IMG/VR virus record: IMGVR_UViG_2698536454_000004 | Reading direction: 5' to 3' (one strand) | DNA length: 25,537 nt | DNA from: a virus | Taxonomy: Duplodnaviria; Heunggongvirae; Uroviricota; Caudoviricetes | Part shown: positions 21,001-24,000 of the stretch, piece by piece | Position numbering within the stretch: the stretch's first letter is position 1 | Layout: each line of letters opens with the position of its first letter | Program-made: the position numbers

Positions 21001-24000
21001 CTGGCTTTGAAGTACGGGTCTTCGCGTTTTTCTGTGTACGTGCTGACGGACGGCGATAAGCGCAGGGAAAGCTCATCCCATTTTTCCCGCAGCTTCGACG
21101 GGCTGAGCACGTTACGGCACCAGAACGGATCGCGGCTGACGCGGCTGTACATCTCGCAGATTTGTTTGTGAGTACGACCATCCTGCACACACATCAGGCG
21201 AATTTCGTTTGCCCAGGCTGTCCAGTTCGGTTCTTTGGGACGAACCACCTCGCCGTCACATTCGGCAGCCTGCTCGTACAGGGCGATGATTTTTTTCCAG
21301 AGCCACTGTGCGCAGGTCAAATCATCCTGCGTCCCCCACTGGCGCTTTTTAGGGCTGAATACAACCGCATCAGGATGGCGAGTTAAAAAATCCTGTTCAG
21401 CCGTCTGCGTGTCCGGTTGCGAAGCGTCCGGACGAGAAGGTTTTTTATCTGACGGATCATGTTTTGATTTTACTGACGGATCCCCGCCAGATTCTGACGG
21501 GTGAAAACCCGCTTTTTTGCCAGATTTCGACGCATCAAATTTTGACGGGTCAGATTTTGATGCGTCAGATTTTGACGGGTCAGAATCTGACAGTTGAGAA
21601 AATGCCGCTGCCTGAAGCTTCGCAACGTTAAGCTGATAAACATTCGACGCATTGCGGTTACCCTGGCGACGCGCCTTACGCGTTAACCAGCCTTCTGCTT
21701 CCAGCCGTGCGATAGCCGTTCTGACGGTACTCATCCCCGCGCCAATCTGACGGGCAATGGTTTCAATTGATGGCCAGCACACACCTTCGTCATTACTGAA
21801 ATCAGCCAGGCGGGCCATAATTGCCACGCTGGATAACTTCATGCCTGATGCAGCGCAACCATCCCATACATAGCCGGTTAATTTAGTGCTCATGACCGAC
21901 CTCTATTTCCCTGAATTTACGACGAAACTGTTCGAGCGGACTGAAGCATTCATGCTCATAACCTTCGCGGAGGTAGATAACCCGTTGTGTTTCCGGCTCC
22001 CAACGAATGACTCTGACGGGCACTCCGTAGTGATCTTTGAACCAGCGGTTAACTTGTCGCAAAGGACTGTCTCCTTCTGCCGGTTGAAATCACCCACAGC
22101 CCACTCTGCAAAGCTGTGGGTTACAATTTCCCTGTCACCTGGTACATTCACTGCATAGCAATATTCCACCTTCGCTTTTCCACCCGGAACAGGAAGCGCA
22201 ATCAGTTGCGAGCGACGGTAGTGTGTTGTTAAACTGTTCATGCGTTAGTTTCTCCACAGTCACGACACGCCACGGCGCCCGGAGCTGCACACTCGCGGGC
22301 GTCATTACTTTCTGAAATGCAAAAAATTTTGTAGACCAGTGCTGCATGCTCCTGCAGCTTCGAAATTGAGAGGTAGAGCTCGTCATTAATTGCTGTCTTC
22401 TCATGCGGTTCCACTACACCGTCTTCGATTGCTGAACGAATCTGTTTTGAATAACTGCCGATCTGTTCAATGACTTCCAGCAGACGCTGGTTAATATCGG
22501 CGTTGTCCACATCCTCGACGTCAGGAAGAGACACAAAGACGCCATTTGCAGACTGCGCCACAGCATCAGCAATGAAGTGAGTTCCACCAGCACGTTGCAA
22601 AATCATTGCCCATCCCAGCGGGAAAATCTGATCGCCATCGGCACGAAGGCGGTTAAATAATGCGTTCTCTGTTACATCCAGCCAGTCAGCAGCTTCAGCG
22701 TAACCCCCCGGCAACGCTGCGATAGTTTTTCTGACAGCTTTCACGTACCACTCAGGCTGTTTGTCTACTTTCCAGTGATGCTTACCCACGGTTAGCCTCA
22801 TCGTTCTGTGGTTTCTGTTAATCGATTTATCCATTAGATTTTTCATAAAGCTCAGGTTTAAATGGCAACCGTCCGCAAGTTCTATATGCAGCTTCTGCTG
22901 CACGTCCTTTTGGAATTAACTGGCCCGGACGGTTTCGCCACTGATAAACGGCTTCAGTTGTTATGCCGAAAAAAGCAGCAACTTTCTCAATACTGCCGAA
23001 GTAGCTTTCGATATCGTCAGTTGTCATACGCCCTCCAAACTAAGTTTTATTAGATGCTAATTACAAATCTATCTTTGGTCAATAAAAACTAAGATTACTT
23101 AGTAATTAAAGAAATGGTGCTCCTATGGAAACGGTTGGTCAGCGTATAAAAGCTCTGAGAAGAGTTACCAGAACGTCCCAGAAAGAATTGGGTAAATTTT
23201 GTGGAGTAAGCGACGTTGCTGTGGGGTACTGGGAGAAAGACATCAATACCCCTGGTGGGGAGGCACTTTCGAAATTAGCGAAGTTCTTCAATACGTCAAT
23301 AGATTACATTCTTTATGGTGCTGAGTTTGAAGGCAAACTCGTCACAAACATGCGCAGAGTTCCTGTAATATCGTGGGTTCAGGCTGGGCAGTTTACTGAG
23401 TGCAGGGCAGCAGAAGTGTTTAGTGAAGTGGACAAGTGGGTAGATACATCATTAAAGATTGGTGATAACTCATTTGCATTAGAGGTTAAAGGTGACTCCA
23501 TGACTAACCCTAATGGCCTCCCAACAATACCAGAAGGCGCAACAGTGATTGTAGATCCAGATGCAGAACCTCGTCATGGAAAAATAGTCATCGCTCGACT
23601 TGATGGAACAAACGAAGCTACAGTAAAAAAATTAGTCATCGATGGCCCTCAAAAGTTTTTAGTGCCATTAAATCCTCGGTATCCCAACATCCCTATCAAT
23701 GGTAATTGCCTTATCATTGGTGTAGTCAAAGGAGTTCAATACGAACTCTAAGACCTCTCTTCTCTAACTAAGGCACCGAACTAAGAAAAGTTTGGTGTTT
23801 TCTCTTGCCATAATAACTAAGTTAAGTTAGATTTTATGTCAAAGATAACGAACAGGCAGGACGCCCACGAAGTAGCCGCCTGGGGCATATGAAGTCCAGG
23901 ATGATTCGTTAGCAACAAAAAAGCGCCCTACAGGACGCTTAGCTCTTTAACAATCTGGTCCCCATCAACAAGTAACTGATAACTTGAGGAGATGTGAAAT

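Follow-up and report, generated by a model that had tools for sequence, protein, structure and literature searches.

The DNA analysed here, called the window, is the whole 25,537-nucleotide stretch of the virus record IMGVR_UViG_2698536454_000004 (Caudoviricetes, IMG/VR), and the subject is a reading frame of 112 amino acids on its minus strand, between ymfL and an O-like replication gene, which is the ymfM gene (b1148) of Escherichia coli K-12. We consider it very probable that this locus holds two genes on the same strand, in different frames and with separate starts, and that it is not a broken gene: the first is ymfM itself (frame A, 21903..22241, 112 amino acids followed by TAG) and the second, nested in it at 21883..22062 (minus strand) in frame B, which is -1 relative to ymfM, encodes a 59-amino-acid protein of the DUF4222 (RgdR) family. 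An earlier note on this DNA had pointed to a coding-frame discontinuity here, and the 112-amino-acid frame with its ATGA overlap (22241..22238), the 68-codon -1 frame and the antisense open reading frame (ORF) that it described are all present where it placed them; what it did not foresee is that the 112-amino-acid frame is itself held open from end to end by selection.

Relatives of the locus were drawn from annotated phage records, from one genome per species (41 loci) and from viral contigs. Two sets were used: a cross-genus set of 42 distinct loci from many genera, in which an ORF for the N-terminal domain of YmfM (the N-domain) abuts the DUF4222 gene, and a within-species set of 85 e14-like loci comprising 53 E. 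coli haplotypes.

ymfM and the nested DUF4222 gene

Frame A, defined by the ORF list, the K-12 annotation and a match of PHROG 1170 over the full length of the 112-amino-acid YmfM (E = 7.6e-70), differs from the K-12 gene by two nucleotides and is likewise flanked by ymfL upstream and the O-like gene downstream, in an e14-type prophage; in NC_000913.3 it carries the label 'cell division inhibitor YmfM'. Its ATG overlaps the TGA of ymfL in an ATGA at 22238..22241 on the minus strand, as given by the sequence, the ORF coordinates and the ymfL end called by the Prokaryotic Genome Annotation Pipeline (PGAP).

The opening 55-59 residues of YmfM constitute a separate domain, the N-domain (about 59 codons, 22065..22241, minus strand), which is delimited by the ratio of nonsynonymous to synonymous differences per site (pN/pS) in frame A, by stand-alone ORFs and by a separate PHROG family (20047, 63 amino acids). 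It occurs alone, as ORFs of 53-65 amino acids sitting directly after a cII-like gene, in Citrobacter phage phiNP, Providencia phage PSTRCR_117lys, Hafnia phage yong2 and Yersinia phage YeP1, and its family is small, with 56 representatives among 1.84 billion proteins and lengths clustering at 59-77 and 111-117 amino acids; neither a Pfam family nor a structural match was found for it. AlphaFold2 modelled residues 10-66 of YmfM as three strands and two helices with a predicted local distance difference test score (pLDDT) of 60-76, and residues 68-112 at below 50. The rest of frame A, about 53 codons overprinted on the DUF4222 gene (21906..22064, minus strand; delimited by pN/pS, pLDDT and stop counts), is here called the tail; it is predicted to be disordered and is rich in Ser and Thr, the Ser arising because xTC codons of DUF4222 are read as TCN in the ymfM frame. 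As a side observation, YmfM residues 19-50 match repeats of the very long Listeria-Bacteroides repeat (Flg_new) proteins P0212 and P0229 in 13 stretches at 37% identity, which may reflect either a distant fold relationship or an artefact of composition.

The -1 frame is free of stops over 68 codons (21883..22089), and its peptide matches the Pfam family DUF4222 (PF13973) with E = 2.6e-19 and 69 bits against a cut-off of 27, over profile positions 1-52 of 53; the 59-amino-acid protein, also called by PGAP, matches PHROG 1343 over its full length. Its start is the TTG at 22062..22060, 8 nucleotides behind the AAGGAG Shine-Dalgarno sequence at 22071..22076 (minus strand), in which lies the GGAG (22074..22071) that the earlier note had proposed as the signal of a second gene. 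This proposal is borne out by the relatives: the TTG aligns with the start codon in 41 other distinct relatives, being ATG in most of them and GTG in two, with TTG confined to the e14 lineage, and a purine-rich, Shine-Dalgarno-like tract precedes the aligned codon in every one. The DUF4222 protein is Tudor/SH3-like, and its AlphaFold2 fold is confident (pLDDT 84).

The only characterised DUF4222 protein is RgdR (ECs1581), a 99-amino-acid product of prophage CP-933C in E. coli O157 that regulates LEE1/type III secretion and motility, binds DNA non-specifically and depends on its Arg-Gly-Asp (RGD) motif (PMC3378721, PMC10877973). Both are small basic prophage proteins of Pfam family PF13973, and each has been missed by at least one reference annotation; RgdR, however, is longer, belongs to another prophage context and has the RGD motif, which the 59-amino-acid sequence lacks. 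The missing tripeptide lowers any claim that the present protein works as RgdR does and leaves its Pfam membership untouched.

Constraint changes frame at the DUF4222 start

Within the e14-like loci, 14 of the 22 variable sites in the first 179 nucleotides of ymfM are third positions of frame A, and in the overlap 13 of 14 are third positions of DUF4222 and thereby second positions of the ymfM frame. The same change is seen across genera: in the N-terminal part frame A has a pN/pS of 0.32-0.56 and both of the other frames exceed 0.8, whereas in the overlap the value is 0.20 in the DUF4222 frame and 1.75 in the ymfM frame, with a pairwise identity of 78% for DUF4222 vs 44% for the ymfM tail. 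The change of character noticed in the earlier note some 55-60 codons into the 112-amino-acid frame is thus measurable as a switch in the frame of the variable sites. Within the overlap amino-acid purifying selection was found for DUF4222 and not for the tail. As far as substitution patterns can demonstrate it, the protein under selection is DUF4222 in the overlap and the N-domain upstream of it, and the N-domain is the only part of frame A that these patterns place under purifying selection as protein.

These patterns bear directly on the idea that an ancestral gene of about 115 amino acids, joining the N-domain to DUF4222, was broken by a frameshift mutation, or appears broken through a sequencing indel, and is now a pseudogene. 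The frames are indeed offset by one base, and a few in-frame N-domain-DUF4222 fusions exist in the protein database (P0031, P0053, P0060, P0065, P0090), but the fusions are rare, mostly found in single contigs and joined differently in each case, as sporadic indels would give, and of the intact ORF of about 115 amino acids, which the earlier note had suggested looking for in homologues, no other counterpart was found. The two-frame layout is intact in the 53 haplotypes and in the 42 distinct loci, 80% or more of the region is present in about 1,930 complete E. coli genomes, the DUF4222 start codon is conserved, and both parts are under purifying selection, each in its own frame. We regard a broken gene or a sequencing error, both of which the earlier note had entertained, as extremely unlikely. 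Tested as a candidate in its own right, the frameshifted pseudogene was rejected on the sporadic nature of the fusions, on the pN/pS values given above (0.20 for DUF4222, 0.32-0.56 for the N-domain) and on both ORFs being intact in 85/85 e14-like loci. Of the refuting condition set out in the earlier note one half holds: homologues do conserve the 112-amino-acid frame, but they keep the -1 peptide as well.

Programmed -1 ribosomal frameshifting, also raised in the earlier note, would join the YmfM N-domain to DUF4222 in the manner of lambda G/GT or dnaX. The DUF4222 frame does lie at -1 to ymfM and is open for 27 nucleotides before the TTG in the window; in other loci (L006, L013, L030, L035, L051), however, the -1 frame opens only 0-6 nucleotides before the ATG. 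Frame A of the window overlap contains no slippery heptamer of the form X_XXY_YYZ, and those in relatives are scattered and not conserved; moreover, the zero frame continues for 53 codons, with no stop soon after any candidate site, and an independent Shine-Dalgarno sequence and start codon are conserved. A programmed shift is therefore very unlikely, and translation of DUF4222 from its own start is preferred.

The 90-amino-acid antisense ORF (21886..22158, plus strand, from the ORF list) is rejected as a gene because its extent is not conserved. The earlier note was right that it exists, and one Klebsiella phage record has an annotated antisense ORF in this place; it is the codon-aligned antisense frame of DUF4222. 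Its codon boundaries are common with those of DUF4222, so that a stop in it requires one of the rare sense codons TTA, CTA and TCA; its longest open stretch ranges from 49 to 125 codons among the 42 relatives, with shifting stop positions; it has no Pfam match; and the two sense frames account fully for the substitution pattern. The chance that it is a real gene is practically nil.

The ymfM frame is kept free of stops

In 42/42 distinct loci the ymfM frame contains exactly one stop within DUF4222, at DUF4222 codon 52-55, while the third frame over the same gene contains 2-10. The expected chance of an open frame was obtained by randomising synonymous codons in such a way that every DUF4222 protein was preserved and codon usage matched that of the flanking genes, and amounts to 0.025-0.17 per sequence (mean 0.064). 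Synonymous sites are nearly saturated (median pS 0.69) and the lineages are therefore nearly independent at these sites; a conservative product of probabilities over 9 clusters, using only clusters at least 0.5 pS apart and the largest probability from each, is 1.5e-10, a value that depends on the threshold, since at pS < 0.6 single linkage chains nearly all sequences into two clusters.

Codon choice gives the same picture. Codons that would create a frame-A stop are absent before A or G (Val 0/112, Leu 0/66, Ile 0/22, or 0/200 risky contexts), and the same codons are used in safe contexts of the same genes (Val 16/59, Leu 36/48, Ile 17/87). On a neighbour-joining tree, the two columns that could be strictly defined as risky, the only ones on which this tree-aware count is based, show 8 changes between C and T and 0 to A or G, where safe four-fold sites predict about 15. 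The terminal stop of frame A, on the other hand, is built from these otherwise avoided A-ending DUF4222 codons in 42/42 loci (ATA in 25, TTA in 11, GTA in 5 and CTA in 1). DUF4222 genes without an upstream N-domain ORF, taken as controls (the second copy in L010, L014, L055, L057 and 21 further distinct cores), have 2-6 stops in the tail frame, and the L289 type, in which an ATGA joins the end of the N-domain ORF to the start of DUF4222, has 2.

It might be argued that the long frame A arises by chance from the codon composition of DUF4222, and that nothing beyond DUF4222 and a short N-domain peptide is of consequence. The probability for any one sequence is not tiny (0.03-0.17), and some DUF4222 genes outside the arrangement, in YeP1, SfV and the L240 lineage, are also stop-free there; all 42 distinct sequences are open, however, despite near-saturated synonymous divergence, one and the same gene chooses its codons according to context, and the terminal stop always comes from codons avoided elsewhere. 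Chance is, in our judgement, hardly to be credited. Avoidance of stops followed by an enforced stop is, at the level of codon choice, the signature of a translated frame, and both frames are probably translated; this comparative evidence demonstrates that both the existence of the ymfM frame and the place where it ends are under selection. The pair thus consists of two genes in different frames, with separate starts, both open beyond chance in diverged relatives.

Two lineages deserve separate description. The L240-L256 loci, which are viral contigs of one low-diversity lineage, have a +1 frame that stays open over the whole of DUF4222 and past its end, for which neither a start nor a function is evident. 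SfV orf37 (L016 773-1609) and the loci L138-L217 have a degenerate N-domain without a hidden Markov model match, and frame A runs from the ATGA with a ymfL-like gene through DUF4222 (GTG start) into an Ash-family gene without a stop, so that annotators call one chimeric ORF of about 278 amino acids, variously labelled 'immunity region', Rha, antirepressor or peptidase. SfV and its 80 relatives (L138-L217) are one low-diversity lineage and add nothing independent on whether the tail frame serves translation or a protein function.

The end of the frame and the replication gene

The stop of ymfM lies within the Shine-Dalgarno region of the O-like gene, 9 nucleotides ahead of the ATG, and this ATG shares the frame of ymfM; in the window the junction reads TAG-AGGTCGGTC-ATG (21891..21905, minus strand). 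This layout of stop, 9 nucleotides and ATG is found in 38/42 distinct relatives, before at least 6 unrelated downstream gene families, whereas the position of the DUF4222 stop varies from 11 to 92 nucleotides inside the downstream gene. In the window the DUF4222 TAA (21885..21883) comes 8 nucleotides past the first base of the O ATG (21893..21891), which makes the ORF overlap 11 nucleotides.

Every gene of the chain is coupled stop to start in every variant. In phages with the N-domain only, the short ORF stops at or just within the start of the next gene; YeP1 has the order N-domain, ATGA, DUF4222, ATGA, O. In Erwinia-type loci the N-domain lies in another frame and its TGA overlaps both the DUF4222 start and a tail-frame ATG (GTGGATGAAG); the tail frame, here an ORF in its own right, nevertheless has no stop before the next gene begins. 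The peptides encoded by the tail frame differ between lineages, from Ser-rich and hydrophilic to hydrophobic.

Translation of the frame, and not its peptide, is most likely what is selected, because the tail sequence is free to vary and because the frame survives detached from the N-domain and ends in the ribosome-binding site of the next gene. In our reading ymfM is translated from the ATG overlapping the ymfL stop and DUF4222 from its own AAGGAG and TTG inside ymfM, the ymfM tail being an overprinted read-through of the DUF4222 gene in the +1 frame. Selection clears this tail of stops and then sets a single one where ribosomes bind to begin the replication gene. We propose that the tail frame would thereby carry the stream of ribosomes from ymfL and ymfM over the inserted DUF4222 gene and let it terminate at the start of the replication gene. 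Coupling to O by termination and reinitiation would result, polarity would be avoided, and the O-like gene would receive ribosomes from both upstream frames. That the tail is kept open in order to bring ribosomes to the replication gene has, we infer, close to an even chance of being correct, although somewhat below it.

The closest analogy is offered by trpE-trpD and trpB-trpA, where termination and reinitiation are coupled at stop/start junctions. As in those pairs, the upstream stop lies a few nucleotides from the downstream Shine-Dalgarno sequence and ATG, and the whole ymfL-ymfM-O chain is built in this way; unlike in them, the frame that would provide the coupling must here cross an entire unrelated gene in another frame.

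A possible but doubtful alternative is that the ymfM tail is open because YmfM needs a C-terminal extension as protein, with its composition and not its exact sequence mattering, for example as a disordered spacer, as a determinant of stability or degradation, or as part of a division-inhibitor activity. The 112-amino-acid form is the one that causes filamentation when cloned, the 111-117-amino-acid form recurs across several diverged N-domain subtypes, and regions predicted to be disordered, as the tail is, tolerate substitution. On the other hand, pN/pS in frame A of the overlap is 1.75, 13/14 within-species polymorphisms there alter tail residues, and the peptides span the whole range of character noted above; no lineage has a shortened tail, the Erwinia-type frame is open although detached from the N-domain, and versions with the N-domain only (53-77 amino acids) exist in many phages.

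Several points weigh against a ribosome relay and against the two-gene interpretation on which it builds. O has a reasonable Shine-Dalgarno sequence of its own and no significant RNA structure was found over its start (z = +0.72), so that coupling is not obviously required; ribosomes on DUF4222 likewise terminate beside the O ATG; and the serial arrangement in YeP1-type and L289-type phages evidently works, and the relay is therefore not the sole solution. The stop-free tail frames in YeP1, SfV and the lineage L240-L256, the last with no detectable N-domain upstream, mean that the open-frame background for a single lineage is not negligible. A composition-dependent protein function of the tail also has to be reckoned with, and a literature search found no ribosome profiling or proteomics showing expression of either frame.

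Some further features of these junctions were observed. In the Erwinia-type loci (L054, L056, L259, L271, L273, L280) the motif occupies about 20 nucleotides around the DUF4222 start and combines three signals (as in the example given above), namely the TGA of the N-domain, the GTG or ATG of DUF4222 and an ATG in the third frame; this last ATG opens an ORF of 58-59 amino acids that lies fully over DUF4222 and in some lineages resembles a membrane helix. At the other end, the ribosome-binding site and the first codons of whichever replication gene follows also specify the final residues of DUF4222 (window 21883-21905), and for this reason the DUF4222 C-terminus varies, its length among the 42 distinct loci changing with the downstream module from 59 to 86 amino acids, with the junction after codon ~52. 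A conserved sequence at this junction, TA(A/G)AGGnCGnyCATGAG, resembles a mosaic boundary sequence.

YmfM as SfiC, annotation and known systems

The ymfM gene has been reported as SfiC, an SOS-inducible inhibitor of cell division, on the evidence of a pBAD24 clone of the ORF, which was reported to block FtsZ-ring formation, and of a whole-gene deletion, the ORF being treated as one gene (Ansari et al., bioRxiv 10.1101/2020.11.19.390815). A clone of this ORF, however, includes the Shine-Dalgarno sequence, the TTG and 53/59 codons of DUF4222, and a deletion of ymfM removes both genes; two earlier filamentation screens used fragments that spanned the whole region and again both genes. The published experiments therefore cannot tell which product blocks division. 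In contrast with YmfM as published, only the first ~59 codons here behave as a conserved protein. As a tentative proposal, and one that we think rather unlikely, SfiC may really be the nested DUF4222 protein or both products together, the second half of ymfM being an obligatorily translated 'ribosome conveyor' that does not code for a peptide as such; if so, this conveyor would span the inserted gene and so maintain the translational coupling of the phage replication gene.

The two main annotation systems show complementary gaps of one gene each. The K-12 reference and EcoCyc annotate ymfM and no DUF4222 gene; in RefSeq E. coli genomes PGAP annotates the 59-amino-acid DUF4222 protein (WP_001250269.1) from the TTG at 22062 and no ymfM, and in those examined it leaves 22063..22237 (175 nucleotides; L001 2594-2768) unannotated, although this stretch codes for the N-domain. 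The same PGAP feature names appear on every listed E. coli match. The region is common, being present at 80% coverage or more in about 1,930 of 5,426 complete E. coli genomes, K-12 included, and a literature search found no paper mentioning the overlap of ymfM and DUF4222.

Out-of-frame gene pairs embedded on the same strand are known from lambda Rz/Rz1 and phiX174 D/E, in which both products have sequence-dependent functions, and the present pair is a further example of this already known arrangement. What they have in common is a gene lying wholly or almost wholly inside another, separate starts, and a pairing conserved across relatives. In the present pair, by contrast, no constraint on amino acids is seen where the outer gene is overlapped, and this part of it seems to be retained solely as a frame that is open and translated; the inner gene, moreover, extends 11 nucleotides past the outer one into the gene that follows. 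The locus is an unusually clean natural case in which selection holds a frame open but lets its amino-acid sequence drift, and selection on translation itself rather than on the peptide becomes directly testable here.

The surrounding locus

The neighbourhood is the immunity and replication region of an e14-like lambdoid prophage, with the genes of the ymfM region on the minus strand. A LexA/CI-like repressor gene (23125..23751, plus strand) and cro (22827..23027) were identified from the ORF list, Pfam and annotation. ymfL, of the CII/CP76 family (Pfam Phage_CP76, E = 2e-13), is placed at 22238..22789 on the minus strand; this follows the PGAP start at 22789, mapped from L001, which gives 183 amino acids, whereas the longest ORF begins with a GTG at 22903, has 221 amino acids and would overlap cro by 77 nucleotides. 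The K-12 ymfL carries a 6-nucleotide insertion.

The O-like replication initiator (20952..21893, minus strand) has an HTH_36 domain (Pfam, E = 4.3e-11) and was also identified by annotation. Inside it, at 21447-21595, there are 4-5 direct repeats on the minus strand with a 15-nucleotide period and a consensus of about TGACGGGTCAGATTT, with many short inverted repeats beside them; these repeats resemble origin iterons within a replication initiator gene, as in lambda ori.

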